32,000 bases of DNA. Source: Pyrodictium abyssi (lineage in GTDB: Archaea > Thermoproteota > Thermoprotei_A > Sulfolobales > Pyrodictiaceae). Each line of letters opens with the position of its first letter. Within the stretch, counting starts at the first letter, position 1. A program made the translations under genes and the position numbers. Under the pieces are notes generated by a model. That model had not been told where the DNA came from and did no database searches. It saw nothing but the letters and a program-made list of their open reading frames with translations. The DNA is taken from NCBI RefSeq assembly GCF_036323395.1, contig NZ_AP028907.1, positions 420,001-452,000 of the forward strand. The letters are read 5' to 3'. Shown here one piece after another: positions 1-29,859 of this stretch.

Positions 1-1517
1 GCGCGGTAGAGCTCTACGCGGGCCCCTTCATAAGGCGCGACGGCCTAGACTACCGCGCAGTGAAGCAGGGCGTACAGAGGCTCATCTACAACCTCAACTT
101 CCCCAGCCGCACAGGCATGCAGACACCGTTCACCAACTTCACGGTGGTCCTGGACGCGGCGCGGAGCAAGCTAGAGAAGGACGACGCAGTCTACGCCGGC
201 GAGCCCGCGGGCAAGCTGGGCGAGTACCTGGACGAGGCCCGCCTCTTCGTGAAAGCTCTCTACGAGGTCCACGGGGAGGGCGACGCCGCGGGCAGGCCCT
301 TCACCTTCCCGATACCCACCGTCATGACGACGAGTAGGATGCTCTTCGACGACCCCGAGGTATTCGAGGCAGTGTTCAACGCTGCGGCACGGAGGGGCAC
401 CGGGTACTGGCTCAACACCAGGGTCGTGGACCCCGACGCGAGCTTCGCCATGTGCTGCAGGATAAACATAGACATGAACGAGCTCCTCCACGCCATGAGG
501 GCCGGGCCCAGGAGCATGAGGATACGCGACATCCGGCGGGAGCTCGAAGAGGCCCGCGAGGAGTACATCCGGAGCCTCGAGCGCCAGAGGATGGGCGGCC
601 TATGGGCCGTACCGGACATAACCGGCAGCAAGGTGGTGATAACGGTCAACCTCCCCAGGCTAGCCCTCGAAGCCCGCGGCGACGACACAGCCTTCACAGA
701 GGCCCTCGACGAGACACTGCGGCTCGTAAGGCAGGGACTAGAGTGGTTCGCCCGGCGCTACGAGAGGCTATCCAAGCTCTACCCAGGCTTCTACAGCATG
801 GTGCTCGACTACCTCCCCGAGGTCTTCCGGCTCACGGGCACCCCGTACTTCCTAACAGTGGGCGTCATAGGGCTCCCCGAGGCAGCAGCGATAATGGCCG
901 GCGACCCCAGAGCCTGGCACGAGGGCAGCAGGAGCCAGTGGCGCGAGATGGCCGAGTGGATGCGCCGGACAGTAGAGCACATCGTGGAGCACACGCGCCG
1001 GTGGAGCATGCGCACCGGGCTAGCCTTCAACGTCGAGGAGGTGCCCGGCGAGAGCGCGGCAGCGAAGCTGGCCAGGAGGGACTCCAGGCTCTACCCACGG
1101 GTCCTCGACTACCTCCCGGACAGGGAGGAGCCGGTCTACAGCACGAGCATAGCGCCCTACTACGCGCCGATGGAGCTATGGGAGCGGGTCGAGGTCGAGG
1201 AGCGGGTGCAGCCAGTCTTCACCGGCGGCGTGATGATGCACATCTTCCTCGGCGAAGAGCCCGACCCAGAAGCGCTCGCGAGCCTGACCCGGAGGCTGAC
1301 CGCGAACACGAGCCTAGTCTACTGGAGCTACACGCCAGCGGTAACAGTATGCCCCAGGTGCGGCTGGAGCGGCGTAGGCCTAGCCACCTCCTGCCCGCGC
1401 TGCGGCTCCGAGACCGAGATATGGAGCAGGATAATCGGCTACTACAGGCCGCTGCGTAACTGGAACCCTGCCCGCCGCCGCGAGTTCTGGACACGCCGCC
1501 ACTACGGCAAGATCTAG
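1..1517 (+). CDS. nrdD: anaerobic (class III) ribonucleoside-triphosphate reductase, C-terminal part; the 5' end lies upstream of the window
   Basis: The frame is open from position 3, with no stop before the ORF-track start at 60. The translation carries a C-terminal zinc ribbon (CPRCG...CPRCG) followed by the glycyl-radical motif SRIIGYYRP close to the stop. QTPFTNFT and a long conserved body are typical of NrdD. An activase gene lies downstream. Confidence 0.9.
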   Translation, partial: AVELYAGPFIRRDGLDYRAVKQGVQRLIYNLNFPSRTGMQTPFTNFTVVLDAARSKLEKDDAVYAGEPAGKLGEYLDEARLFVKALYEVHGEGDAAGRPFTFPIPTVMTTSRMLFDDPEVFEAVFNAAARRGTGYWLNTRVVDPDASFAMCCRINIDMNELLHAMRAGPRSMRIRDIRRELEEAREEYIRSLERQRMGGLWAVPDITGSKVVITVNLPRLALEARGDDTAFTEALDETLRLVRQGLEWFARRYERLSKLYPGFYSMVLDYLPEVFRLTGTPYFLTVGVIGLPEAAAIMAGDPRAWHEGSRSQWREMAEWMRRTVEHIVEHTRRWSMRTGLAFNVEEVPGESAAAKLARRDSRLYPRVLDYLPDREEPVYSTSIAPYYAPMELWERVEVEERVQPVFTGGVMMHIFLGEEPDPEALASLTRRLTANTSLVYWSYTPAVTVCPRCGWSGVGLATSCPRCGSETEIWSRIIGYYRPLRNWNPARRREFWTRRHYGKI

Positions 1518-1581
1518 CACCCCTCCCCGGCGGCCCAGGCCCTTTCCGCGGCAGACGACACGGTCCAAGGGGCACAGCGCC

Positions 1582-2187
1582 TTGCCGCTCATATCGTTTA
1601 TAGGGGTCCACGGCTCCGGGAAGACCTCCACAGCCCGGCTACTAGCCCGGCTCTACCCGGGCTGCTACCTCTACCACGAGCTAGAAGCCATAGACGAGGC
1701 CCACGGGCTACCCCCGGCCGCGCGCCAGCTCCTCTTCCTCTCCAGGTTCGTGGAGGGCTACCTCCAGGCATACAGAGAGTCCCAGAGCACCGGGAAAACA
1801 GTGGTCATGGACAGCCACCCCGTACTAGTGCCGGTCTATAGCCGGTGGTGGCTCCGGGGCCACGCAGAGGACACAGTAGAGGCCATGGAGAAGCTGCTCC
1901 AGGCGCTCCCGCCCGCAGACCTACTCGTCTACATAAGGGCAGGAGACCCCAAGGAGATAGCGCGCCGCATCCTCGCGCGGGGCCGCGCTGTGGCCAGGGA
2001 GGAGGCAGACCCCGAGTACATAGAGTTTATAGACCGCGAAGCCTCGAGGATCGTCGAGGAGTACGGGGCCAGCCTAGCCAGGAGGATAATGGTCCTCGAC
2101 GCCCAGGAGCCCCTCGAGGAGAAGGCCCGCCGGGTACACACGGAGCACGCCAGGCTAGCCGGAGGCACACAGGCTTGCAGCTGCTAG
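1582..2187 (+). CDS. P-loop nucleoside/nucleotide kinase-like protein (deoxynucleoside-kinase-like)
   Basis: TTG start at 1582. Walker A motif GVHGSGKT at residues 8-15. The C-terminal segment ARRILARGRAVAREEADPEYIEFI resembles the dNK/dCK lid (RGR..E....Y). The stop at 2185-2187 overlaps the proposed nrdG start. Confidence 0.6.
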   Translation: MPLISFIGVHGSGKTSTARLLARLYPGCYLYHELEAIDEAHGLPPAARQLLFLSRFVEGYLQAYRESQSTGKTVVMDSHPVLVPVYSRWWLRGHAEDTVEAMEKLLQALPPADLLVYIRAGDPKEIARRILARGRAVAREEADPEYIEFIDREASRIVEEYGASLARRIMVLDAQEPLEEKARRVHTEHARLAGGTQACSC

Positions 2188-2930
2188 CCGGGGGCTGGAA
2201 AGCCCCGAGCCTAGTAGACGTCCGGGGCCGCGCCACGTTCACCCTCTGGCTCTGCGGCTGCAACCTACGCTGCCCCTTCTGCCACAACTGGCGCCTAGCA
2301 GAAGCAGCCCCCGAAGCCTGCCGCCCAGTGGAGCTCGACACAGTCCTGAAGGCGCTCCACGGAGCCGCTAGGCTAGTAGACATGCTCCACGTGACCGGCG
2401 GCGAGCCAGCGCTACAGGCCAGGGCTCTGGAGAGGCTGCTAGAGGAGAGCAGGGGCCTAGGCCTAGGTAACAGCATCAACACCAACTGCACTCTCCCCCA
2501 CCTGCTCCAGCCCCTCCTAGACCGCGGCCTCGTAGACCACGTAGCCACCGACCTCAAGACACCCTTCCACACGCTAGCCGGGCTACGGGGAGGGACAGCA
2601 GCCCGGCTCCAGGAAAGGTTCCTCGAATGCCTCAACGCGCTGGCGAGCCACGGGGTGGAGGTCGAGCTACGCATACCGGTGCCCCGCGAGATACCAGGCT
2701 ACACAAGGCTGCTCGAGGAGAGCCTCAGAGAGGCCGCAGAGGCGCTCCACGGCACCAAGTGGTACGTGGTCGTGAACCCGCTCCAGGGCCGCCCCCTCGT
2801 AAACCCCCGCGACGAGGAGTGGTGCGCCAAGCACTGCAGCCCAGACCAGCAGCTCGTCGACATGGTAGTGGAGACGGCGAGGAGGCACGCCACGAGAGTG
2901 TACGTCAACTGGGTGCTCTCCACGGTCTAG
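2175..2930 (+). CDS. nrdG: anaerobic ribonucleotide reductase activating protein (radical SAM)
   Basis: Radical-SAM cluster motif CGCNLRCPFCHN about 25 residues after an in-frame TTG at 2175, plus the VTGGEPAL SAM-binding motif. The ORF-track start at 1845 runs through the kinase gene in another frame and is Arg/Pro-rich there, so it was rejected. The exact start is uncertain. Confidence 0.85.
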   Translation: MQLLAGGWKAPSLVDVRGRATFTLWLCGCNLRCPFCHNWRLAEAAPEACRPVELDTVLKALHGAARLVDMLHVTGGEPALQARALERLLEESRGLGLGNSINTNCTLPHLLQPLLDRGLVDHVATDLKTPFHTLAGLRGGTAARLQERFLECLNALASHGVEVELRIPVPREIPGYTRLLEESLREAAEALHGTKWYVVVNPLQGRPLVNPRDEEWCAKHCSPDQQLVDMVVETARRHATRVYVNWVLSTV

Positions 2931-3016
2931 GCGGGGGCTGCCCCTCCGGGAAACCTTCTTAACCCCTCACCGGGGTGTTAGAGACCCTACACATGGCAAG
3001 ACCCGGAGCATTGGGC

Positions 3017-3095
3017 GCGGCGGTCGTCTAGCCTGGACTAGGACGCCGGCCTGCCAAGCCGGCGATCCCGGGTTCAAATCCCGGCCGCCGCACCA
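3017..3095 (+). tRNA. tRNA-Gly(GCC): tRNA-Gly, anticodon GCC, with encoded CCA
   Basis: Hand-folded cloverleaf. Acceptor GCGGCGG/CCGCCGC. D stem GTCT/GGAC. Anticodon stem CCGGC/GCCGG with loop CTGCCAA. T arm CCGGG-TTCAAAT-CCCGG. Discriminator A, then CCA at 3093-3095. Confidence 0.9.
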
Positions 3096-3180
3096 CAAAT
3101 CCTCTCCTCTCCACTGCTCCACGCACCGTTCTGTCTGCGCATCTCTCGCTGTTACACACGTGGGTGTGCTGGCTGTCCTG

Positions 3181-3444
3181 TTAGCCTGCTGCAGCTGTGG
3201 TGTTGCCGCGAGGCTGGCTTTGTAAATCCTCCTTGGCCTTGGCTATGCATTGGGCGAGGTTCTCTATGAGGAAGCTGTATATGCGGCATGTCGTCACGTA
3301 TCTGACTGCGTCGGGGTCTGCGCGCATAGTGTAGGAAAAGGACCTGGACCCGTCAGTCCTCAGTATGCCTACAAATACCACACTATCCGGGACCGTGGTG
3401 GTTACGCCATCCGGGCTGTAGCGTAATATAGTGCTTTGCGCCAA
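3181..3444 (-). CDS. hypothetical protein; may be the frameshifted continuation of the upstream ORF
   Basis: 87-codon ORF with a TTG start, overlapping the end of ORF 3402..3956 by 43 nt in another frame. No recognisable motifs. Lower-GC segment. Confidence 0.3.
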   Translation of the reverse strand: MAQSTILRYSPDGVTTTVPDSVVFVGILRTDGSRSFSYTMRADPDAVRYVTTCRIYSFLIENLAQCIAKAKEDLQSQPRGNTTAAAG

Positions 3445-3956
3445 GTATGTTTAGCAGCCTTTGCCTGGCTATCTCGTTGGGGACTGTTCTGGCTACTATG
3501 GCTGATATCCTGGAGGCATATACTCCTCTTAGGCCTTACAAACGCGACGCCTTTTCCCGACTCGAACGCCATCTTCAGCAGCTCTACAACAGGTCGTGCC
3601 AGTGTATCGTTGGCTAGTATACTGTCGGCTTTAAGCAGTATCGCGGCTGCATCCTTGTATGTAGACATGATTTCTGGCGTTGGTGCTGGCACTGTTTTAA
3701 CCGTGAAGCCTGCGCCGCTGAGTATCTCGGCAAGGCGTGTATCGTTAAAGCCGACGAGAACTATGGTAGAGCCGTAGATGGTTCTAGCGACTAGTGCTGG
3801 TATAGTGTATATGTTGCAGCTGGTTGTTGTAGTGTAGCCTGCTTCTCTGTGCCACGCTTCGTGCCCATGTAGGCTCAGCAGATATGTTGAGAGAGCGGTG
3901 ATAGCCAGTAGGCCCAGTATAGCGGCGGCTCGTGGTATAGCGGGTGTGGCTGTCAT
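3402..3956 (-). CDS. hypothetical membrane-anchored/secreted protein
   Basis: 184-codon ORF. N-terminal hydrophobic segment (AAAILGLLAITALSTYLLSL) follows a short charged start. The composition looks coding. No family recognised. Confidence 0.5.
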   Translation of the reverse strand: MTATPAIPRAAAILGLLAITALSTYLLSLHGHEAWHREAGYTTTTSCNIYTIPALVARTIYGSTIVLVGFNDTRLAEILSGAGFTVKTVPAPTPEIMSTYKDAAAILLKADSILANDTLARPVVELLKMAFESGKGVAFVRPKRSICLQDISHSSQNSPQRDSQAKAAKHTWRKALYYATARMA

Positions 3957-9469: not shown

Positions 9470-9547
9470 GCCGCGGTAGTATAGCCCGGCCAAGTATGCG
9501 GGCCTTTCAAGCCCGTGACCCGGGTTCAAATCCCGGCCGCGGCACCA
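9470..9547 (+). tRNA. tRNA-Glu(UUC): tRNA-Glu, anticodon TTC, with encoded CCA
   Basis: Hand-folded cloverleaf. Acceptor GCCGCGG/CCGCGGC. D stem GTAT/GTAT (two G-U pairs). Anticodon stem CGGGC/GCCCG with loop CTTTCAA. 4-nt variable loop. T arm CCGGG-TTCAAAT-CCCGG. Discriminator A, then CCA. Confidence 0.9.
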
Positions 9548-19923: not shown

Positions 19924-21123
19924 ATGAGAGCGTTGGCTACCCAGAAGAAGCGCGTAGTCGTGGTAGGCGGCGGCATAGCAGGTATGGCTGCTGCGCGCAC
20001 ACTCGTAGAGAGGATAGGCGACGCGGCAGAAGTCACAGTCGTAACCAAGGACCCCTTCTACATGGCTGGGCCTAGCCGCCCCCTACTGCTAACCGGGGAG
20101 CAGAGCTACGACCGCATAACCCGCGGCTACGAGGAGGCCGCGGCCAGCGGCATAAGGATAGTGTACGGCAACGTGACCCGCATCGACCCCGGCGAGCGCC
20201 GCGTATACTACACAGAATCCCCAACCAGGAGCTACACCTCGACCACCCAGAGCAGCCTAGACTACGACTACCTAATCCTAGCCCCCGGCGTAGTCTACGA
20301 TGGCTCGAGCATCGAGGGCTACAGGGAGCACTGGCACCGCACAGCTAGCGTCTACGAGCCCGGCCGCGTAGACGTGCTACGCAGCCGCATCTGGAGCCAG
20401 AACAAGGGCACAGTAGTAGTGTACGCTCCGCCCATGCCCTACCGCTGTGCTCCAGCTCCCACAGAGACTGCTCTAATAATAGATGCTGTCCTGCGCCACC
20501 GCGGAGTACGTAATAGCTTCAGCATAGTACATGTGGATGCAAACCAGAAGACACAGCCACCGGTGATAGCAGATATAGTGAAGAATATCTACGATGAAGC
20601 AGGGATCGAACTCATAACGGGTAGAAAAATAACTGAGATAGACGATAAATCGGTGGTCCTGGAGGATGGAGAACGCATAGAATACACGATCCTGGCGCTG
20701 CTTGAGCCGAACCGCGCTCCACGCTTCATAGCCGAGGCAGGGCTCGGCCAGGACTGGATAGAGGTGAAGACACCCGAGAAGCCCCGCACACCAAGCTACG
20801 ACGACATACTCGCGGCGGGCGACGCCGCTAAGCTGCCTTTCCCCAAGAACCAGGAGATAGCCTACGAGAGCGCCCTCTACGCAGCCAACACGATAATAGA
20901 GGAACTGGGCGGCGAGCCAGCGAGCGTACAGTACGCCTTCCTCGGCTGGGTGTATATGGGCAACCTCCAGGGTCGGCTAGAGACGCTGAGCATCCAGTTC
21001 GGGCTAAACTTCACCACGAAGCCGCCGAAGGCCAGCAAGGATGCCACGCCTAAGCGCGACTACACGCTCCAGAAGGACCGCTGGGAGCAGAGCTACCTCA
21101 ACCGGCTCTTCCACCCCAAGTAG
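19924..21123 (+). CDS. FAD-dependent pyridine nucleotide-disulfide oxidoreductase, sulfide:quinone oxidoreductase-like
   Basis: N-terminal Rossmann motif VVVVGGGIAGMAAA. The PYRCAPAPTETALIID segment resembles the SQR/FCSD P.kCpgAP.E motif. A second dinucleotide-fold region ends in AAGDAA. Confidence 0.7.
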   Translation: MRALATQKKRVVVVGGGIAGMAAARTLVERIGDAAEVTVVTKDPFYMAGPSRPLLLTGEQSYDRITRGYEEAAASGIRIVYGNVTRIDPGERRVYYTESPTRSYTSTTQSSLDYDYLILAPGVVYDGSSIEGYREHWHRTASVYEPGRVDVLRSRIWSQNKGTVVVYAPPMPYRCAPAPTETALIIDAVLRHRGVRNSFSIVHVDANQKTQPPVIADIVKNIYDEAGIELITGRKITEIDDKSVVLEDGERIEYTILALLEPNRAPRFIAEAGLGQDWIEVKTPEKPRTPSYDDILAAGDAAKLPFPKNQEIAYESALYAANTIIEELGGEPASVQYAFLGWVYMGNLQGRLETLSIQFGLNFTTKPPKASKDATPKRDYTLQKDRWEQSYLNRLFHPK

Positions 21124-21260
21124 CCATCGCCGCGCCTCTCTTTTTACGGCCCCCGGGGGCCGGAGGAGCGGCCGTAGTCCTCTTATACCCGGAGCTAGGC
21201 CGCGGGGTCTTGGCCCACGTGTATCCCACCTAGCGTCCTGGCCGGGGTGACGGGGTATGG

Positions 21261-22928
21261 GTGGTCGCCAAATCCGTCGCTAGCCTACCCAGCGTAGACG
21301 GAGCCGCACTCCTCGAGAGGGTCGAGGTCCTCGACACAACGCTGCGCGACGGAGCCCAGGCGCACGGCATATCCTTCAGCCTCCAGGCGAAGATACGGAT
21401 AGCCCTAGAGCTAGACCGCCTAGGCGTATCCTTCATCGAGGCCGGGTGGCCGGGCAGCAACCCCAAGGACGAGGAGTTCTTCCGGGCAATAAGGGACTAT
21501 AGCCTCAGCCACGCCGAGATAGTAGCGTTCACCTCGACACGCCGCAAGGGCATGAAGCCGGAGGAGGACAGAGTTCTCGCCAAGGTGCTCGACGCGGAGA
21601 CGCGCTGGGTCACCGTCTTCGGCAAGTCGTGGACACTACACGTCCACGAGGTCCTAAGGACAACGCTCGAAGAGAACCTGGACATGGTCTACGACACGAT
21701 AAGGTTCCTCCGCGAGCACGGCGTCCGGGTCATATTCGACGCAGAGCACTTCTTCAACGGCTACCTCGAGGACCCCGAGTACGCGCTAAAAGTGCTGGAG
21801 ACAGCCGTGGAGGCCGGCGCCGAGAGGATAGTACTAGCGGACACCAACGGCGGCATGCTGCCCCACACTGTGTACCGTGTCGTCCGCGAGGTCCGCGAGA
21901 GGATAAAGGCGCCCCTAGGGCTCCACATGCACAACGACAGCGGCTGCGCGGTAGCAAACACCATCATGGGCGTCCTCGCCGGCGCAGAGCACGTACAGGT
22001 CACGGTCAACGGTATAGGGGAGCGCACCGGGAACGCAGACCTATGCCAGGTAGTCCCGGGGCTCGAGCTGAAGCTCGGCGTCCGCGCCCTAGAGAACCCT
22101 GAGGGGCTCCGGCTCCTACGCCGGGTATCCCGGCTCGTCTACGAGCTAGCAGGGCTCCAGCCCAACCCCTACCAGCCCTATGTCGGCGACAACGCGTTCG
22201 CACACAAAGCGGGGGTGCACGTCGACGCGGTGCTGAAGACACCCAGGGCCTACGAGCACATAGACCCCGGGGCTGTGGGCAACCAGCGACGCCTAGCCGT
22301 ATCGGAGCTGAGCGGCGCCGCTAACCTCGTAGCATGGGCGCGCCGCGAGCTAGGCCTAGAACTCGGCAAGCGCGACCCACGGCTCCGCCGGGCCCTAGAG
22401 CGGGTGAAGCAGCTCGAGAACCAGGGCTACAGCTTCGACAACGCTTACGCCTCGGCGCTCCTCATACTCATGGAGGAGCTGGGGGCCAGGGCCCGGCCCT
22501 TCCGTGTAGAGGCCTGGAGAGTGGTCAGCGAGGGCGGGCCCCAGGGGAGCAGGAGCTGGGCACTAGTCAAGGTCGCGGCGCCGGGCGGCGAGACGGTGCT
22601 AGCAGCAGGCGAGGGCGGCGGACCCGTACACGCCGTAGACGAGGCCCTCCGCGCCGCCCTAGCAAGGCTACTACCCGGCGGAGCCGGGGCGGCCCGGCTC
22701 ATAGACTACCGGGTCACGCTACCCGGGGCCGTGAGGCACACCGCCAGCACAGTGAGAGTCGAGGTAACCCTGACAGACGGCTCCAGCGCGTGGACCACGG
22801 TCTCGGTCTCGGACAACATAGTAGAGGCCAGCCTAGACGCGCTAACCCAGGGCATAGAGTACTACCTGCTCCGCAGCAGGCTACGCCAACAGGCCAGCAC
22901 GCCGGCTACAAGGGCTCCATCCGGGTAG
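21261..22928 (+). CDS. cimA: citramalate synthase / 2-isopropylmalate synthase family enzyme (long form with LeuA-type C-terminal regulatory domain)
   Basis: VLDTTLRDGAQAHGISFSLQAKIRIALELDRLGVSFIEAGWPGSNPKDEEFF is the HMGL-like N-terminus, including the GWPGSNPKD motif typical of the CimA-type clade. HMHNDSGCAVAN is the metal-site motif. The tail is a LeuA_dimer-like domain of about 150 aa. The start codon (GTG at 21261) is uncertain. Confidence 0.8.
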   Translation: MVAKSVASLPSVDGAALLERVEVLDTTLRDGAQAHGISFSLQAKIRIALELDRLGVSFIEAGWPGSNPKDEEFFRAIRDYSLSHAEIVAFTSTRRKGMKPEEDRVLAKVLDAETRWVTVFGKSWTLHVHEVLRTTLEENLDMVYDTIRFLREHGVRVIFDAEHFFNGYLEDPEYALKVLETAVEAGAERIVLADTNGGMLPHTVYRVVREVRERIKAPLGLHMHNDSGCAVANTIMGVLAGAEHVQVTVNGIGERTGNADLCQVVPGLELKLGVRALENPEGLRLLRRVSRLVYELAGLQPNPYQPYVGDNAFAHKAGVHVDAVLKTPRAYEHIDPGAVGNQRRLAVSELSGAANLVAWARRELGLELGKRDPRLRRALERVKQLENQGYSFDNAYASALLILMEELGARARPFRVEAWRVVSEGGPQGSRSWALVKVAAPGGETVLAAGEGGGPVHAVDEALRAALARLLPGGAGAARLIDYRVTLPGAVRHTASTVRVEVTLTDGSSAWTTVSVSDNIVEASLDALTQGIEYYLLRSRLRQQASTPATRAPSG

Positions 22929-23889: not shown

Positions 23890-24540
23890 CTAGCTCACGC
23901 TAACAGGTGTAACCTCCACGTAGACCGGGATGGTGTCGAACATAGCACCCTCCCTCACCTGGTAGTAGACAATAGCGTCGAAGACCACAGGCCCGGAGGA
24001 GAGGTCGCCGCTATCCAGCACCATGACAGCGGTAGGCGCGTCTAAGCCGACCACAGCCTTAACCTCCCTGCCACCAGTCCCAGCCTTAGCCAGCACCACG
24101 TCTAAGCGGCTAAAGTAGCGCCTCAACACATCAGCGTTAGTAATGTTGACGACGAGCTTCGCGACATCAACGTCCGGGCCCGGAGACACCACGAGCCAGC
24201 CAGGATAGACAAGCTCGCCCACAGCACCAGAAGAGCTAGAGACGGACAACACACCAGCGGTGGACACCGTCACAGGCTCAGCAGCAGCCGAAGCCTCGCC
24301 GACAGCCCAGCCGCCCCCAGCAGCCCCGGAGCCGCCCGCACCATACCCGGGGGAGGCTACGCTAGAGCCCTGTACACCGCTAGGCGCCGGGGTGTAGGGC
24401 ACGCTAGCGGGGCCCGGTTGCTGGCCGCCAGTCTCCGTGGCGAAAGCACCTAGAAGCACTATGGCGGCGAGCGAGAACACTACAGCCGCCAGGCCGGCAA
24501 CGACGACACTGTTACCCATACTACGGCACGCCCTACACAT
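23890..24540 (-). CDS. secreted/anchored hypothetical protein, paralog A of a three-member family (signal peptide, Gly/Ser/Ala/Pro linker, conserved C-terminal domain)
   Basis: The N-terminal hydrophobic segment VVVAGLAAVVFSLAAIVLLGAFA/TE has an AxA-like cleavage site. The low-complexity linker is GYGAGGSGAAGGG. The C-terminal 110 aa align with 29140..29859 (DVDVAKLVVNITNADVLRRYFSRLDVV...EVKAVVGL...VMVLDSGDLSSG...YYQVREGAMFDTIPVYVEV). Confidence 0.7.
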   Translation of the reverse strand: MCRACRSMGNSVVVAGLAAVVFSLAAIVLLGAFATETGGQQPGPASVPYTPAPSGVQGSSVASPGYGAGGSGAAGGGWAVGEASAAAEPVTVSTAGVLSVSSSSGAVGELVYPGWLVVSPGPDVDVAKLVVNITNADVLRRYFSRLDVVLAKAGTGGREVKAVVGLDAPTAVMVLDSGDLSSGPVVFDAIVYYQVREGAMFDTIPVYVEVTPVSVS

Positions 24541-24566
24541 GCATGCTGTGGACCAGCCGGGCAGAA

Positions 24567-24572
24567 CTATAA
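24567..24572 (-). promoter_or_regulatory. TATA-like element for paralog A (near-leaderless)
   Basis: The minus strand reads TTATAG, centred about 30 nt upstream of the ATG at 24540. Confidence 0.35.
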
Positions 24573-25111
24573 GGCTTGCCTCAGCCGCTGGCCCGGCTAC
24601 GCACCGATAACAGTGTTACAGATGACGCCAGATGGTTAGTATCGCTAGAGGTACAGAAACCACTACTATTTCTACTTCTACGACGTAGCTGATACGCGGA
24701 CACCAGAAAAATGTGGGCAACACTTAAGATAGAAAGCTACTAACGAAGTAGACAGCGGGTACACGGCACAGAGCTTATATAGCGTGCGGAGGCAGAGCCA
24801 CAGATACCCGCGCAGGAAGAACGAGGCTCGGCCAAGCACTACACAGCGGTAACAAGGCGTCCTCACACTCAAGGAGCTGGCGGCAGGGCCTCACCCCCTC
24901 ACCGGAGGGATCACAGCCCCCTGCCGCCCCGGTGGGTGAGGAGAGCCCCGGCTGCCGCCCTCGCCCGTCTCTAATACTCGGTCAATTCCCTAGTTTAAGC
25001 ATTTCTAACCATAGGATTAGCCGGGCTAGCACAGCCGCATTATTCCCCGTCGCGCAGACCAGGAGAGAGGGAGCCACGCCCCGCCACACCCTCCCCCGGC
25101 AGGCGCCAAGG

Positions 25112-26092
25112 GTGTCCCCAGCGGTGAGGACCGTCGCCGAGAAGAGGCTCGGCAGCGAGCCCCGCGGAGTAGCATGGAGCCCCCAGGGCTTCCTAGCAGT
25201 AGCCGAGCACTACAAGCGCGTATCAATACTCAGCCCGGGCCTCGAGCCCGTCTGGGCCCGTAGCCCCGGCCTCTACCTCACCGGCGCCCTCGCCTGGAGC
25301 CCCAGGGGCCGCATGCTCGCCGTCGCCGCGCGCTACGGCAGCCTCAGCCCAGCGGGCTTCACAGTCTACGACGTCTCCGAGGCGGTGGGCGCCAGGAGCC
25401 TCACAGCCTGGCTCCGCCGCGCCCGCAGGCTCCACCGCGTCTACACCACCGGCGCCGTCTACAGCCTAGCCTGGAGCCCGGACGGAGGCCTCCTAGCAGC
25501 AGGCAGCAGCATCGACCGCTGGATCCTGGTCTACCGGGCCCGGCGGAGCGGCCCCGAGCCCGCCTGGGAGTGGAGCGTCCAGGGGCTCCACCGCCTCCTA
25601 TTCACCAGCCGCGACCACCTCTACGTCTACAGCCTCGCCTGGAGCCCCCGCGGGGGCCTACTAGCCGCGGCGGGCGGCAGCGGAGGCGAGGGCTTCACAG
25701 CCCTCTTCACCCGCGATGGCGTCCTCCAGCGCCTCTCCAGGCTAAGCTGGACCTGCTTCTCCGTGTCCTGGAGCCCCGACGAGAGCTTCATAGCCGTGGC
25801 CTGCCGCGACAGCCTCCGCGTCTACGACGCCGAGACCGGCGCCCTGGTATGGCGGAGCCCCGAAGGCTGGTACACCAACGTGGCCTGGCTCGACCAGGAC
25901 ACCCTAGCGGCCACGACCAGGACAAGGCTCCACCTCTACACCTGGATAGGCCTAGAAGCCAAGCCCGAGCACACGGTGGAAGTGGCGGGCTTCACCGAGC
26001 CCGGCACAGGGCTCTCCCACCACCCCGGCACAGGGCGCCTCGCTGTAGCAGACACAGCGGGCCGGCGCGTAGTAGTGCTAGAGCCGGGGTAG
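25112..26092 (+). CDS. WD40-like beta-propeller repeat protein
   Basis: Six to seven repeats carry the motif (A/S)WSP(D/R/Q)G..LA(A/V): VAWSPQGFLAV, LAWSPRGRMLAV, LAWSPDGGLLAA, LAWSPRGGLLAA, VSWSPDESFIAV. The start is set at the first in-frame GTG after a TATA-like TTTAAGCA at 24994. The ORF track starts at 24932 in a low-complexity region. Confidence 0.65.
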   Translation: MSPAVRTVAEKRLGSEPRGVAWSPQGFLAVAEHYKRVSILSPGLEPVWARSPGLYLTGALAWSPRGRMLAVAARYGSLSPAGFTVYDVSEAVGARSLTAWLRRARRLHRVYTTGAVYSLAWSPDGGLLAAGSSIDRWILVYRARRSGPEPAWEWSVQGLHRLLFTSRDHLYVYSLAWSPRGGLLAAAGGSGGEGFTALFTRDGVLQRLSRLSWTCFSVSWSPDESFIAVACRDSLRVYDAETGALVWRSPEGWYTNVAWLDQDTLAATTRTRLHLYTWIGLEAKPEHTVEVAGFTEPGTGLSHHPGTGRLAVADTAGRRVVVLEPG

Positions 26093-26115
26093 AGAGGGGG
26101 CGAGCCCCCCGGGGG

Positions 26116-27066
26116 CTACCCGGCCTCGAGCACCTCAACCCGGGCAGCCAGGGGCACCCTATCCACCAGCAGCCCCTCCCGGGCCTCATAGTACACCCGC
26201 GCCCCCAGCACAGCAGCACCGTCCACGAAGCTCCCGCCGTCGAGCACCACTACGGCCTCCGGCCGGTCGAGGCTCATAGCGGCCTCCCCCAGCTCCAGCA
26301 TCTGGACCCTAGCCCGGGCAGACATGTCCAGCACCACATGGTCCTTGCCTATGGTGGCGTTAACCACTACTACGAGCCCGTCACCGGTCATGTTTATCAC
26401 AACGTAGTCGCCTGGCTGCATGAACGTGGCTACATTATCTTCTATCGTGCTGTCGTCAGCGTACCGGAGGTCCACGTTGTAGCATGTGTAGGGCAGCGGC
26501 CAGACATGTATCACAAGGCCCTTCTTGAGCTTCTCGCGGTCAAAGCTAGTGATTACCGTTTCTGACTGGTATCGGCTGTTAGTGACCACTATCCTGTCCA
26601 GTGTGCTCCAGAGCCGGTCCACCTGAGGCCCCAGCGCGGCGGAGAGGTTACCGTACACGTCCACGAGGACGTCGTTGACCCCCGCCTCGCCGCTGTAGAG
26701 GCTTACGCTCCGCCACCCGCCCTCGCCCAGGAACACGAGCTGCGGCGACACGAGGAGGCTCCGGAAGACACTGCGGAGCACATCGACGTCGCCGAGGCTT
26801 ATACGGAGCTTAACGTAGTCCACGTCGCCCCTCTTCTCCACTACTATCCAGTCGAGGTCCCCTACTACTCCGCGGGCCCCGCTAGAGACGTCGAGGAGCA
26901 AGCTCCTAGCATGCACGTCCACGGGCTCGCTCACGGCCGACGCGGCGGCTGCTGCGCCCGCAGAGCCGCCTAGCTGCCGGAGCGCTAGCGTAGCCGCTAG
27001 AGCTACCAGCAAAAGCGCTAGAGTAGGCACAACGCCTCGAGCCCTGCGGTTATATACCCAGCGCAT
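26116..27066 (-). CDS. secreted hypothetical protein, paralog B (the conserved domain appears split by a large insertion)
   Basis: N-terminus MRWVYNRRARGVVPTLALLLVALAATLAL...AAASA/VS. DVDYVKLRISLGDVDVLRSVFRSLLVS aligns with the first half of the A/C domain. AVVVLDGGSFVDGAAVLGARVYYEAREGLLVDRVPLAARVEV aligns with the second half. About 130 unrelated residues lie between. Confidence 0.7.
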   Translation of the reverse strand: MRWVYNRRARGVVPTLALLLVALAATLALRQLGGSAGAAAAASAVSEPVDVHARSLLLDVSSGARGVVGDLDWIVVEKRGDVDYVKLRISLGDVDVLRSVFRSLLVSPQLVFLGEGGWRSVSLYSGEAGVNDVLVDVYGNLSAALGPQVDRLWSTLDRIVVTNSRYQSETVITSFDREKLKKGLVIHVWPLPYTCYNVDLRYADDSTIEDNVATFMQPGDYVVINMTGDGLVVVVNATIGKDHVVLDMSARARVQMLELGEAAMSLDRPEAVVVLDGGSFVDGAAVLGARVYYEAREGLLVDRVPLAARVEVLEAG

Positions 27067-27104
27067 CTTGCCGCCCGTGACTAGCGGAGCGCAGGTTTGT
27101 TACG

Positions 27105-27110
27105 TATAAA
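27105..27110 (-). promoter_or_regulatory. TATA-like element for paralog B
   Basis: The minus strand reads (G)TTTATA(C), about 40 nt upstream of the ATG at 27066. Confidence 0.4.
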
Positions 27111-27317
27111 CTCAACGGACAGGACACACAAGCAGCCCGCCCGTTGCATATAACCCCAGTCCCGGCGATATACAACAAGCCGGTCCAACAGGACGCGGAA
27201 ATCAGGACAACACTCGCCCAGTTATAAAACCGGCTAAGCAGCCCAGCCCCGAACAACGCTGCGGGCGGTAATTACAGAGAAACAGCCCTAAGACATACCT
27301 CTAGGGGCGGCGGCGCA

Positions 27318-27740
27318 GTGATAGAGCCCGCGACGCTGATAGCCCTAGCCGCGCTAGCCATGGCCACGCTCAGCCTAGCCCGCACCCGCGGCCTCCACGC
27401 GAAGAAAGACAACACAGCCAGCCAGCCGGGCACACAGGGCCCCGGAGAGGTAGAGCTAGCCCAGGCAGCACTAGACGAGCGCGACATAGCCATACTAGAG
27501 CTGCTGGACAGCAACGGCCCCATGGGCGTAAGCGAGATCGCACGCAGACTAGGCCTAAACAAGTCCACCGCATGGAGGAAACTGCGCAAACTAACCAACA
27601 TGAACATAGTCGAGAGGATAACCCAGAACGGGAGACCCCTCTACCGCCTACGCCGAGAAACAGCCGCCACAGGCGAGAAGCAACAGAGCATAGCGGCGAG
27701 CATAGTAGAGCAGCTCCGCAGGAAAAACAGGCAAGCCTAA
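27318..27740 (+). CDS. winged helix-turn-helix transcription regulator with N-terminal hydrophobic anchor
   Basis: GTG start. N-terminal IEPATLIALAALAMATLSLA. LDERDIAILELLDSNGPMGVSEIARRLGLNKSTAWRKLRKLTNMNIVERI is a MarR/ArsR/TrmB-type wHTH. Confidence 0.7.
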   Translation: MIEPATLIALAALAMATLSLARTRGLHAKKDNTASQPGTQGPGEVELAQAALDERDIAILELLDSNGPMGVSEIARRLGLNKSTAWRKLRKLTNMNIVERITQNGRPLYRLRRETAATGEKQQSIAASIVEQLRRKNRQA

Positions 27741-27743
27741 GCC

Positions 27744-28241
27744 CTAGACACCACCAGCCACACGGCCGCCCAGCTCCTCCAAGAACCTCTCAACACGCCC
27801 AACCATAGCCCCGAAATGCCTCTCGTCGCCCACGCCCTCCCGGAAGGCCACGAAAGCAGCCAGCCCAGCATACCACGCATCAGCCACAGAGCCAACCTCG
27901 CCCATAGCCTCCGAGACAAGCCCCCAGTACCCGGCAAGCCCCTCCGGCCGGCCACCACCACGCAGGTAGCCAAGCGCATCCAGCCCGAGAAGAACCGAGG
28001 CCCAGACACGGCGGAAAGCTTCCCCAAGCCTACCCTCCTCAGCCAGAGCCCGGGCGTGCTCAAGACTCATATGAGCAGCCTCAAGCAGCGCCCGCGGCCT
28101 CTCACCCGGCTCAACAAGCCTCAGAAGCATCCCTACCATAACAGCCTCCGGAGTACTCCCCCTCTCCTCGGCCTCACGCTCCAACGCCCTAAGGACGGAG
28201 TCCGGGACGGGAAGAGACCCGGGCAAAACACAGCCCACCAT
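27744..28241 (-). CDS. RHH-like N-terminus fused to a PaREP1-family (HEPN-like) domain
   Basis: SVLRALEREAEERGSTPEAVMVGMLLRL resembles a CopG/RHH strand-helix-helix. ALLEAAHMSLEHARALAEEGRLGEAFRRVWASVLLGLDALGY...VADAWYAGLAAFVAFREG...VERFLEEL follows the PaREP1 pattern (A..ll..G.l..A.eK.W.A...a.ka.a......lw..a..lH..FYe). Near-leaderless, with TTTAAC about 25 nt upstream. Confidence 0.6.
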   Translation of the reverse strand: MVGCVLPGSLPVPDSVLRALEREAEERGSTPEAVMVGMLLRLVEPGERPRALLEAAHMSLEHARALAEEGRLGEAFRRVWASVLLGLDALGYLRGGGRPEGLAGYWGLVSEAMGEVGSVADAWYAGLAAFVAFREGVGDERHFGAMVGRVERFLEELGGRVAGGV

Positions 28242-28288
28242 CTATAACACTGCACGGGAGAAGTTAAACACCTAACCCCCGGCAGCCC

Positions 28289-28318
28289 GGTACATACACC
28301 GGTACACGCGCGGGTACA
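28289..28318. repeat. three direct GGTACA(Y) repeats with 12-nt period, upstream of the PaREP1-like gene promoter
   Basis: GGTACAtacaccGGTACAcgcgcgGGTACAcc, with copies at 28289, 28301 and 28313. This places them about 50-75 nt upstream of the ATG at 28241 on the minus strand. Confidence 0.5.
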
Positions 28319-28981
28319 CCCGCCAGGACACATTCCAGCAACCCGCACAGGTAAAGACAAAAGCTAAAATGTTAGCAGACACGCAGCTAGACGTGGAGCA
28401 CCTACGAGCTAGCTCTACTACGCCAGGCCCAGGAGGCAGCCCCATGCAGGGTAACATCCAAGCCCGGTGTACACAAGTAAGCACATAAACTAGTAAGACA
28501 ACATTTAGAAGTAGTAGCATCACATGCTAAACGTTGCACCAGCATAGTACTAGGGCAGGGCGGCACACTAGCTAGCCCAGACACGCAGAGCTGAAGGCGC
28601 GGCTCCATGTGTAGTATCACTCATACTGTAGGCTTACAGCTACAGCGATAAGACAACAGCTGCACACGTAAAGCTCTATCTATGCAAGGTTATAGGATAG
28701 TCTTACTCAGCGGCACTGGTGTAGGGGCTAGCTAGCAGAGTGCATGCTCATTGGGCTGTGCGGTGCACTGTAATATCCATTGTCTGGTGGAACACATAAG
28801 GAATAGAGGTTAATGCTTAAAGCACAGCTAGCTTACACACAGCTAGGGGTCTGATAATGCACACGGTATAGCGGTACTATAACTCTGCTACGCGTAAGCC
28901 GCGCCTCTGATAATATATCCCTGCGGCTTCGGTATTGCCTCTGTACTCGTAGAGTGGTCTCGGTAGCCAACAAACAGTACA

Positions 28982-28989
28982 TTTATATA
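28982..28989 (+). promoter_or_regulatory. consensus TATA box about 150 nt upstream of paralog C
   Basis: TTTATATA. The predicted transcript start near 29012 implies a leader of about 125 nt containing the hairpins GGAGAGTC...GACTCTCC (29029-29070) and CCCCCGG-GGCT-CCGGGGG. Confidence 0.45.
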
Positions 28990-29139
28990 ATCAGGTGAAA
29001 ACCATAGTACCCCGGCGGCCGGGGGAGAGTCCAGCCTAGAGAGTGCCAGACGAGATGACGCTGACTCTCCACGCGGGCTACTGGCGAGGACGCATCGTGG
29101 CCCGGACTTATCCCCCGGGGCTCCGGGGGTGCGTAGGCC

Positions 29140-29859
29140 GTGTACATGTACGATAACAGCAACAATACGATCATGGCTGTAAGCCTGCTACTGCTGGTTG
29201 TATCGCTCGCAGGGCTAGCCGTGATAGCTGTCTTCGCTAGCCAGGACTACTCCTACTACACGGGCCCCACGGTCTCCAACACCCCGCAGAGCAGGTACGT
29301 GGACGAGAGCACGGCTGGAGAGGTATACGATTACATGAAGGAGCCTGAGTGGGAGATAGGCGAGAACGGCTACCAGCAGACAGAGACAACAACCACCGCC
29401 ACCACGACCACGGCAACAGCTACAGAGACAGTCACGTCGACAGAGGCTGGAGCCGCAGTAGGCGGTATGGAGGGCACTGTACAGGTAACAGTATCGGCTC
29501 TACCGCTCGAGATAAGCAGCGTCCTAGGCCCCTCGGGCCAGTTTGTACAGCACAGCTGGATGACGATAACAGCAGCCCAGGACGTAAACGTGGCCAAGAT
29601 AGTGCTAACATTGGCGAACGCTAAGCAGCTCCAGGGCTACTTCAACCAGCTCGACGTCGTAGTAATAGACCCGTCTGACGGCGAGGTAAAAGCAGTACTA
29701 AGCATACTCAAGCCGACCGTGGTACTAGTGCTCGACAAGGACGAGCTATCAGCTGGCGTAGTCACGCTTGACGCGGCTATACACTACGAGAGCCATGAGG
29801 GCGTAACCTTCGACACGCTCCCGGTCATTGTGGAGGCGAGGGTCGAGAGCGTAAGCTGA
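29140..29859 (+). CDS. secreted/anchored hypothetical protein, paralog C (signal peptide, Thr-rich linker, conserved C-terminal domain)
   Basis: The hydrophobic segment AVSLLLLVVSLAGLAVIAVFA/SQ has an AxA-like site. The linker is TETTTTATTTTATATETVTST. The C-terminal domain is DVNVAKIVLTLANAKQLQGYFNQLDVV...EVKAVLSIL...VLVLDKDELSAG...HYESHEGVTFDTLPVIVEA. Alternative starts are ATG 29146 and ATG 29173. Confidence 0.7.
   Translation: MYMYDNSNNTIMAVSLLLLVVSLAGLAVIAVFASQDYSYYTGPTVSNTPQSRYVDESTAGEVYDYMKEPEWEIGENGYQQTETTTTATTTTATATETVTSTEAGAAVGGMEGTVQVTVSALPLEISSVLGPSGQFVQHSWMTITAAQDVNVAKIVLTLANAKQLQGYFNQLDVVVIDPSDGEVKAVLSILKPTVVLVLDKDELSAGVVTLDAAIHYESHEGVTFDTLPVIVEARVESVS

Follow-up and report, generated by a model that had tools for sequence, protein, structure and literature searches.

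Three paralogous genes in one window

The window analysed here is a 32,000-nucleotide (nt) stretch of the Pyrodictium abyssi AV2 genome (NZ_AP028907.1, positions 420,001 to 452,000 of the forward strand). Our subject is three of its genes, termed A, B and C, which an earlier note made from the sequence had described as dispersed paralogs of an unrecognised family of secreted proteins. All three open reading frames (ORFs; lengths in amino acids, aa) are found exactly where that note had placed them:

23890..24540, minus strand: gene A, cannula-like protein with an N-terminal extension; 216-aa ORF
26116..27066, minus strand: gene B, cannula-like protein with a domain insertion; 316-aa ORF
29140..29859, plus strand: gene C, cannula-like protein with a 70-aa N-terminal extension; 239-aa ORF

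The product of gene C is 100% identical to the P. abyssi hypothetical protein WP_338251550.1 (PABY_04780). A and C align over 119 aa at 45% identity (E = 3e-30), in agreement with the 40-50% estimated by eye in the earlier note. B aligns to A and C in two stretches that span its residues ~46-104 and ~261-311 (E 1e-9 to 2e-4), indicating that the same domain is present in B and is interrupted by an insertion of ~141 aa. The pairwise alignments are thus significant for A and C as a whole and for B in two pieces; the claim of three secreted-type paralogs sharing a beta-rich domain is upheld. The domain, given in the note as ~110 aa, measures ~135-140 aa once its N-terminal donor-strand segment is counted in. 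The common build proposed for the three proteins holds for the shared domain and for the linkers of A and C, whereas the 141-aa insertion that splits the domain of B had been overlooked. A family hidden Markov model (HMM), together with phmmer searches using each protein, recovered only A, B and C from all six-frame ORFs of the window. Collectively, A, B and C are real, divergent paralogs whose resemblance goes far beyond chance.

A, B and C match the CanA/CanX cannula family

Cannulae are extracellular tubes of P. abyssi and rank with the most heat-stable protein assemblies known; they enter the periplasmic space, and roles as a matrix, as cell-cell conduits and in DNA transport have been proposed for them. 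The tubes of CanX, CanA and Hyper2 have been solved by Sleutel et al. (Nat Commun 2025, PMC12518558), revealing jelly-roll subunits that polymerise without a chaperone via N-terminal donor-strand complementation, strengthened by three Ca2+ sites. The same study reports 19 CanA-like candidates in the AV2 genome NZ_AP028907.1, 15 of which can be aligned to a consensus (11 in two clusters and four as orphans), and notes that many candidates carry substantial domain insertions and also N-terminal extensions, on whose function it only speculates (PMC12518558).

Searches with phmmer against PDB sequences link all three proteins to CanX (9h8b), Hyper2 (9bab/9bac) and CanA (7uii/9dlo/9hdi). A matches CanX 9h8b at E = 3.2e-18, Hyper2 9bab at 1.4e-10 and CanA 7uii at 2.6e-10; C matches CanX at E = 7.4e-18, Hyper2 at 1.4e-11 and CanA at 4.4e-8; B matches CanX at E = 1e-12 in two stretches, and CanA and Hyper2 at 7.1e-10 and 6.7e-10, respectively. 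A structure model was made for B only, and the jelly-roll fold of A and C is judged from their end-to-end alignment with CanX, which runs from the donor-strand region through the final residue. The AlphaFold2 model of mature B has a mean predicted local distance difference test (pLDDT) score of 74. Its top five Foldseek matches in the PDB are 7uii, 9bab, 9hdi, 9h8b and 9dlo, each with a probability of 1.0; target-normalised template-modelling (TM) scores against these cannula structures are 0.58-0.72, the value of 0.72 being that for CanX, and the matches ranked below the five entries are noise. Matches of the whole B model to legume lectins and alginate lyases (probability 0.1-0.4, TM ~0.13) were judged meaningless.

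Scans with Pfam (E <= 1) and NCBIfam assign A, B and C to no family. This explains why the domain had not been recognised in the earlier note, although the CanA/CanX family was described structurally and bioinformatically in 2024-2025 (PMC12518558). In UniRef, A (P0005) is named "GerMN domain-containing protein", which looks like an automatic mis-annotation, since the Pfam scan finds no family at that threshold. Word-indexed homolog searches returned only two or three matches each, namely the query itself and close orthologs, and missed the paralogs, so an exhaustive profile search was needed. HMMER profiles run against 1.84e9 representative proteins retrieved 36 relatives only, in agreement with the published restriction of the cannula family to Pyrodictiaceae. 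Taken together, we regard the membership of A, B and C in the CanA/CanX cannula-like jelly-roll family as virtually certain. The family is restricted to Pyrodictiaceae and the three are its divergent paralogs, located ~200 genes from the canX cluster in P. abyssi AV2.

A CanA-seeded HMM search would detect matches with such E-values, so A, B and C are very likely among the 15-19 CanA-like genes of PMC12518558. No published text naming WP_338251550 was found in a search outside which the supplementary gene lists of that paper lay. The family, its mechanism and its paralog expansion in the P. abyssi genome are already published; the label "unrecognised" is therefore wrong as of 2025, and the present case amounts to a correct rediscovery, not to a new family. 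The tentative link that the earlier note drew to the cannulae of Pyrodictium is accordingly upheld by significant homology of all three proteins to CanX, CanA and Hyper2 and by the source organism itself, P. abyssi. The architecture it had pointed to, a Sec signal with a small beta (jelly-roll) domain and donor-strand logic, is consistent with the published family. A profile match to a characterised family with a different role had been named as a ground for dropping the idea; such a family match exists, and its role is the one that had been guessed.

Several known systems help to place the three proteins. CanX (WP_338251948.1; 9h8b), the major ex vivo cannula subunit of AV2, is encoded in the same genome, has the jelly-roll of A, B and C and carries a ..FA↓T type of signal-peptide site (the arrow marks cleavage) like that predicted for A and C. 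Conserved features are the strands EP(V/I)xV and D-V-(D/N)-V-x-K-L, the xxGxxG loop and the motifs LDxxD and YYExxEGxxFDxxP. However, mature CanX has 148 aa with its donor strand 8 residues from the N-terminus, whereas A and C have 42-70 residues before theirs. None of A, B and C has its P1 aromatic in place, this residue being either absent or shifted; the CanX Gly13 is Ala in B, which in addition carries the 141-aa insertion, and its N51 glycosylation sequon is absent from all three. CanA of P. abyssi TAG11 (7uii, 9dlo, 9hdi) belongs to the same family and has loop insertions, one of them at the insertion site of B; in CanA these loops measure 8 and 29 aa, as against a whole domain in B. CanA, CanB and CanC have identical first 25 residues and masses of 20-24 kDa (PMC4187195). 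CanB and CanC of TAG11 share the TTQSPLNSFYATG... start of CanA, to which the predicted mature N-termini of A (TETGGQQPG...), B and C (SQDYSYYTG...) are unrelated, and by this N-terminal criterion of 25 shared residues (PMC4187195) A, B and C were rejected as CanB/CanC orthologs. Hyper2 (A0A432R7L7; 9bab/9bac), a distant member that self-assembles with Ca2+, has the fold and motifs of A, B and C (E 1e-11 to 7e-10), yet comes from another genus-level lineage and has the canonical short architecture. Its PDB title reads "DUF1102 domain-containing protein", whereas A, B and C have neither a DUF1102 nor any other Pfam match at E <= 1.

The likeness to TasA, AbpA and Sulfolobus threads suggested in the earlier note does not hold up to the same degree. 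TasA/camelysin, AbpA, AbpX and Saci_0406 are Sec-exported, donor-strand-complemented jelly-roll or Ig-like subunits of extracellular filaments, and CanX has been linked to the TasA/camelysin superfamily by HHsearch with 80-95% probability (PMC12518558). However, proteins of the TasA/AbpA/Saci_0406 type form fibres that are thin, in contrast to 25-nm tubes, and a gene for a dedicated signal peptidase is often adjacent to theirs; none is present beside A, B and C. They are remote superfamily relatives at best: no Peptidase_M73 match is found with Pfam (E <= 1), and the 50 best Foldseek matches of the B model in the PDB include none of them.

Conserved core and donor strands

The donor-strand and core segments of the three proteins are as follows:

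24265..24312, minus strand: donor-strand-like segment of A, GWAVGEASAAAEPVTV (HMMER alignment with CanX and family alignment)
23893..24264, minus strand: jelly-roll core of A, residues 93-216 (end-to-end alignment with CanX)
29449..29856, plus strand: donor-strand-like segment of C, GAAVGGMEGTVQVTV, and its jelly-roll core (CanX and family alignment)
26929..26982, minus strand: degenerate donor-strand region of B, LRQLGGSAGAAAAASAVS (family alignment)

The family was aligned to a profile built from its short members, and the donor-strand registers given here come from sequence alignment alone. Canonical members of ~170 aa read ...LLAGFA↓TTQSPLNSFYATGxAxAxxEPIDV..., followed by the jelly-roll. 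With the Glu of "EP" as reference point, the donor residues that face the groove lie at -11 (aromatic, P1), -9, -7 (the invariant Gly13), -5 and -3. The central Gly13 is conserved in all putative cannula-like proteins, and its G13A mutant in Hyper2 is severely assembly-defective (PMC12518558). The donor region of A, GGGWAVGEASAAAEPV, keeps this glycine as Gly81 and has Gly in the P1 column, the next residue, Trp78, aligning with CanX Tyr10. That of C, EAGAAVGGMEGTVQ-VTV, keeps it as Gly108, with Gly and Ala in the P1 and next columns, no aromatic and no Glu-Pro. In B and its close orthologs (AGAAAAASAVSEP; ...LRQLGGSAGAAAAASAVSEPV), both the P1 aromatic and the invariant glycine positions hold Ala. 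The central glycine is thus found in A and C and lost in B, and the P1 aromatic (F/Y), in the register given by the alignment, is lacking in all three. B is a family member by domain homology despite its deviating donor strand. P0026, a B-type protein of another lineage that is 38% identical to B and has the same insertion, keeps the canonical SLFHAIGVINAGREPV, AYA↓TVAGNSLFHAIGVINAGREPV and F-H-A-I-G.

Most of the positions invariant in the family are retained. Residues common to A, B and C are, in CanX mature numbering, G37, G40, D54, K59, D108, Y126, E130, D135 and P138. Among these, G37/G40 and E130/D135 fall in the loops assigned to axial Ca2+ sites (CanA 34-40 and 161-173; PMC12518558). 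Other positions have changed in single proteins, E127 to Gln in A and D111 to Ser in B.

The A/C sub-family donor motif G-[WA]-A-V-G..., set against the canonical FYATG, could mean a self-matched donor and groove. On that reading, homopolymeric filaments or tubes distinct from CanX cannulae would be built by every paralog for itself, or by the A/C pair, in other conditions and with an unchanged donor-strand/Ca2+ mechanism. Hyper2 alone and CanA alone do self-assemble into tubes, which differ in symmetry (PMC12518558). Each of the three genes has its own promoter-like element, and A-type and B-type orphan genes occur in another Pyrodictiaceae metagenome-assembled genome (MAG), so these types are able to function apart. 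We nevertheless consider separate filaments unlikely, since CanX cannulae and AbpX bundles are the only two filament classes seen ex vivo (PMC12518558), B lacks the very glycine whose replacement by Ala cripples Hyper2 assembly, and a long N-terminal extension may not be compatible with a closed tube lattice.

Predicted signal sequences and N-terminal extensions

Upstream of the donor strands, three segments were delimited:

24439..24540, minus strand: signal sequence of A, residues 1/8-34, ...LLGAFA↓TE (hydropathy, (-3,-1) site and alignment with CanX GFA↓TT; cleavage putative)
24313..24438, minus strand: extension of A, residues 35-76, 42 aa rich in Gly/Ser/Ala/Pro, between signal peptide and donor strand (family alignment)
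29239..29448, plus strand: extension of C, residues 34-103 (70 aa), motif YDYMKEPEWEIGENGY followed by a Thr-rich run (sequence and family alignment)

Hydropathy analysis shows one N-terminal hydrophobic segment in each of A, B and C and no further transmembrane-like segment. The predicted cleavage sites of A (GAFA↓TE) and C (AVFA↓SQ) align with GFA↓TT of CanX. In B, the candidate sites are TLA↓LRQ, ALA↓ATL and ASA↓VSE, and homology with P0026 and the canonical members favours TLA↓LRQ. The Sec-type signals with AxA-like sites that the earlier note had read find support for A and C in the alignment with CanX, whereas the ASA↓V site it chose for B is doubtful. Its low-complexity linkers are confirmed in both A, as the Gly/Ser/Ala/Pro-rich residues 35-76, and C, as the Thr run within residues 34-103. 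The start codons of A (24519-24540) and B (27031-27066) are uncertain. NCBI starts A at Met8 (24519), giving 209 aa (P0005), and its ortholog on L001, a metagenomic contig (Logan SRR26701691), lacks an ATG at the position further upstream. For B, NCBI starts at Val13, giving 304 aa; here the P0008 and P0009 orthologs speak for the ATG upstream of it, with an RR-containing n-region. The sequence GTATATAA lies just within the 5' end of the long ORF of B.

Compared with canonical members, the extension of A corresponds to a 35-aa insert state plus flanking residues. The motif YDYMKEPEWEIGENGY of C recurs in the A-type homolog P0010 as SDYEYMTQPEWSIGEEGY, and as judged from these two proteins a short conserved motif appears to mark the predicted mature N-terminus of A/C-type Can proteins. 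In P0010 the counterpart YEYMTQPEWSIGEEGY opens a much longer extension rich in Cys and acidic residues.

The hydrophobic segments are long (22-23 aa), A (from Met8) and C lack a positively charged n-region, and the linkers of A and C are placed exactly between hydrophobic segment and donor strand. Such features would suit non-polymerising surface proteins with a retained membrane anchor, whose low-complexity stalk crosses the pseudo-periplasm and whose Can domain docks or nucleates cannulae. We hold this to be improbable: the FA↓T/S site has a conserved counterpart in CanX, from which the signal peptide is cleaved off; DeepTMHMM predicts Sec/signal peptidase I (SPI) processing for all CanX homologs (PMC12518558); and B has no stalk. 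Far less probable still, and in practice set aside, is the notion that the three are type IV pilin-like proteins with a class III signal peptide, assembled by the archaeal type IV pilus machinery. The N-terminal hydrophobic segment is of helix length and B has RRARG↓VV right before it, but the best-matching homologs are jelly-roll subunits that undergo Sec/SPI processing and donor-strand complementation. Neither A nor C has a K/R-G (class III) motif, the RG↓VVP of B aligns with Sec-type family members, and no pilus ATPase or PilC-type gene lies alongside.

A domain inserted in B

The insertion in B occupies one continuous stretch:

26293..26727, minus strand: inserted domain of B, residues ~114-258 (~141 aa; CanX and family alignments)

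The insertion point coincides with the loop that in CanA bears the 8-aa outward-projecting loop, and the insertion is conserved only in B-type proteins (B itself, P0008, P0009 and P0026). Scanned alone, it matches no Pfam family, and an insertion profile run against PDB sequences gave noise only, the best match being a TIM barrel at E = 0.03. A second Can domain was rejected as its identity, as was kinship with the ~210-aa insertions of other paralogs, in both cases because of no detectable similarity. Within the whole-B model the insert reaches pLDDT 64-86, and an AlphaFold model of the insert alone was unusable (pLDDT 41). Since the CanA loop at this site protrudes on the outside of the tube (PMC12518558), the extra domain would be expected to face outward if B joined a lattice.

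Promoter elements, spacers and leaders

The earlier note had credited each gene with a TATA-like element of its own, and one is indeed found upstream of each:

24567..24572, minus strand: candidate TATA box of A, TTATAG, ~30 nt upstream of ATG 24540; conserved in L001
27104..27110, minus strand: candidate TATA box of B, TTTATAC, ~40 nt upstream of ATG 27066; from sequence only
28982..28990, plus strand: candidate TATA box of C, TTTATATAA, ~150 nt upstream of the start codon; conserved in L001

The C element lies within a ~95-nt block (region 28930-29139) that is near-identical in L001, the rest of the 898-base-pair spacer being ~60% identical. Its position implies a predicted 5' leader of ~130-150 nt for gene C, which may be regulatory. 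Two conserved GC hairpins are seen in this leader, CCCCGGCGGCCGGGG at ~29010 and CCCCCGGGGCTCCGGGGG at 29111-29128, right before the GTG start.

The spacers have a GC content of 0.48-0.60 as against 0.65-0.71, and the low-GC spacers described in the earlier note are thereby corroborated. Between A and the WD40 gene, a ~230-nt block at 24810-25045 is ~90-97% identical to L001, as compared with ~65% for the flanking spacer, and carries a long GC-rich inverted repeat, GGGCCTCACCCCCTCACCGG...CCGGTGGGTGAGGAGAGCCC. It may represent the actual leader, or 5' region, of the WD40 gene (an ORF from GTG 24932), or else a small RNA. A scan of the window with Rfam finds nothing at 24810-25045; its two matches are tRNA genes at 3017-3092 and 9470-9544 (RF00005, 61.7 and 63.4 bits), in lower-GC stretches far from A, B and C.

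Neighbourhood and divergence

Two annotated genes are interleaved with A, B and C:

25127..26092, plus strand: WD40 beta-propeller protein without signal sequence (Pfam WD40/ANAPC4_WD40)
27318..27740, plus strand: winged-helix regulator with an N-terminal hydrophobic segment, WP_338251546.1 (Pfam HTH_24, MarR, TrmB)

The labels given to these two neighbours in the earlier note are supported by Pfam, whereas its "RHH-PaREP1" label for the 165-aa ORF finds no support in Pfam or NCBIfam. The winged helix-turn-helix (wHTH) protein also shows sub-threshold NCBIfam similarity to the HTH of Csa3, to Sta1 and to Lrs14-type regulators, and a role as a local regulator is speculative. Among the neighbours QRPTase, WD40, wHTH and the 165-aa ORF, there is no peptidase S26/signal peptidase, chaperone, pilus ATPase or PilC-type gene; published family genes likewise have neither a chaperone nor a dedicated signal peptidase nearby (PMC12518558).

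The order QRPTase, A, WD40, B, wHTH, 165-aa ORF, C is kept in L001. The synteny evidence comes from metagenomic contigs, as a locus scan of GTDB genomes with a B-type alignment confirmed none of its 600 pattern matches and did not return even the window itself, AV2 apparently not being in that collection. In the distant Pyrodictiaceae MAG GCA_003978665.1 and related metagenomes, A-type and B-type genes lie on separate contigs among housekeeping genes, and no WD40, wHTH or further Can-like gene is found near them. Neither the WD40 nor the wHTH gene, though interleaved with the three, is therefore a conserved partner, and the WD40 protein is probably functionally unrelated to the Can-like genes. 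Synteny with L001 (its positions 1-3628) ends just upstream of QRPTase: window 16631-20246 matches in inverted orientation, and window 20247-22721, which contains most of a 555-aa ORF (21261-22928), has no counterpart at the L001 junction. A rearrangement therefore borders the A/B/C cluster.

Divergence was measured between each window gene and its L001 ortholog, over 23890-24519 in the case of A, as the synonymous rate (dS), the nonsynonymous-to-synonymous ratio (dN/dS) and nucleotide identity:

Gene A: dN/dS 0.22, dS 0.42, nucleotide identity 83.5%
Gene B: dN/dS 0.18, dS 0.24, nucleotide identity 89.9%
Gene C: dN/dS 0.22, dS 0.39, nucleotide identity 84.3%
Flanking QRPTase, WD40 and 165-aa ORF: dN/dS 0.16-0.21, dS 0.10-0.12, nucleotide identity ~95.5%

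The jelly-roll domains alone give a dN/dS of 0.15-0.17, and the extension of A gives 0.35. The wHTH gene has the highest value in the region (0.54), its divergence being focused at 27372-27520 (79% nucleotide identity), between the hydrophobic segment and the HTH. Orthologs of A, B and C occur at 80-92% identity in at least three metagenomic contigs. The dN/dS of ~0.2 shows that A, B and C are intact genes under purifying selection and not pseudogenes.

At the nucleotide level, A, B and C diverge 2.5-4 times faster than the flanking genes. Together with parts of the spacers they form fast-diverging islands in a slowly diverging backbone, a pattern that we interpret as characteristic of surface-exposed proteins or allele exchange. 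The fast divergence suggests allele exchange/recombination, or a locally raised mutation rate, at surface-protein genes. It could also be taken, along with the degenerate donor strand of B and the loss of Q39 and Y76 in all three proteins, as a sign of decaying or functionless duplicates of cannula genes. This is very improbable in view of the intact frames, the multiple orthologs, the low dN/dS of the domains and a B-type architecture that is kept, insertion included, down to 38% identity in another lineage.

A proposed model for A, B and C as variant cannula subunits

We propose that the three proteins are secreted via Sec and assemble, as accessory or variant subunits of cannulae, through donor-strand complementation and calcium coordination, and we put the probability of this reading as a whole, a blend that includes family membership, at roughly 70%. 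In this model, the precursors would be exported via the Sec translocon and cut by SPI near ...FA↓T/S, as suggested by the alignment of the A and C sites with that of CanX and by the DeepTMHMM prediction for its homologs. Outside the cell, both conserved loops, "xxGxxG" and "YYExxEGxxFDxxP", would become ordered by high Ca2+, after which the jelly-roll would join a polymer, the groove between its first and last strands taking the N-terminal beta-strand of a neighbour, and A and C would additionally donate their own strand, in a Ca2+-primed, chaperone-free complementation with other Can-family subunits as partners. A secreted structural role of this kind is fairly likely.

A narrower claim, that the three are accessory or variant subunits and neither bulk subunits nor builders of separate filaments, is tentative, and we place it somewhat below even odds. 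It is drawn from the deviating donor strands, the extra modules and the homogeneity of ex vivo cannulae. A and C are unlikely bulk building blocks because a 42-70-aa extension precedes the donor strand and the canonical P1 aromatic is missing; B is an equally unlikely one because it has lost both the P1 aromatic and the central Gly and carries a 141-aa domain in an outward loop. The three would most likely serve as sub-stoichiometric or condition-specific variants, decorating, capping, anchoring or diversifying assemblies of the cannula type, with B as a groove-only, acceptor-type subunit displaying its outward domain, and with extensions of A and C that are flexible and probably glycosylated.

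Several observations weigh against this model. Published cryo-electron microscopy (cryo-EM) of ex vivo cannulae shows homogeneous tubes without outward domains, and minor-subunit incorporation, which the authors raised as a possibility and looked for in these cannulae, was not seen (PMC12518558); any incorporated paralog must therefore be rare in cells cultured in that way. Two residues that are invariant in 11 of 11 canonical members, Q39 and Y76, are replaced in A, B and C alike, so the three may not fit the CanX lattice at all. The comparison of Ca2+ sites was made at the level of motifs. In A and C, the long hydrophobic regions and the lack of a positive n-region make an uncleaved membrane anchor possible. 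Finally, the assignment of a role draws on sequence and model evidence, and the expression, localisation and assembly of A, B and C are predictions.

Chaperone-usher pili offer an analogy for a further idea, a division of labour in cannula assembly like that of their ordered subunits. Minor, tip or terminator subunits such as FimH and PapH could be analogues of B: they have a groove and a defective or absent donor strand, in some cases an extra lectin-type domain, and take a terminal position in which a functional domain is displayed. They have no homology to B, however, and cannulae need neither chaperone nor usher. By this analogy, B might act as a cap, nucleator or adhesin, placed either terminally in a chain of donor strands or at sparse positions of the lattice. 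A and C might use a glycosylated stalk and a variant donor strand to tether cannulae to the envelope or to line the lumen, and the recombination-like divergence might stem from selection that acts on exposed surfaces, through viruses or cell-cell recognition, for instance. We regard this as conjectural and rather improbable.

What remains of interest at the present locus is the degenerate donor strand of B, the extension motif shared by A/C-type proteins and the accelerated divergence of all three genes. A, B and C form a compact test set of non-canonical architectures, in which A and C offer an N-terminal stalk and B combines a domain on a surface loop with a degenerate donor strand. Their roles bear on how tube assembly starts, ends and is attached to the cell without chaperone or usher, and they may show which loop or terminus of the subunit tolerates large cargo, which is useful for cannula-based nanomaterials.

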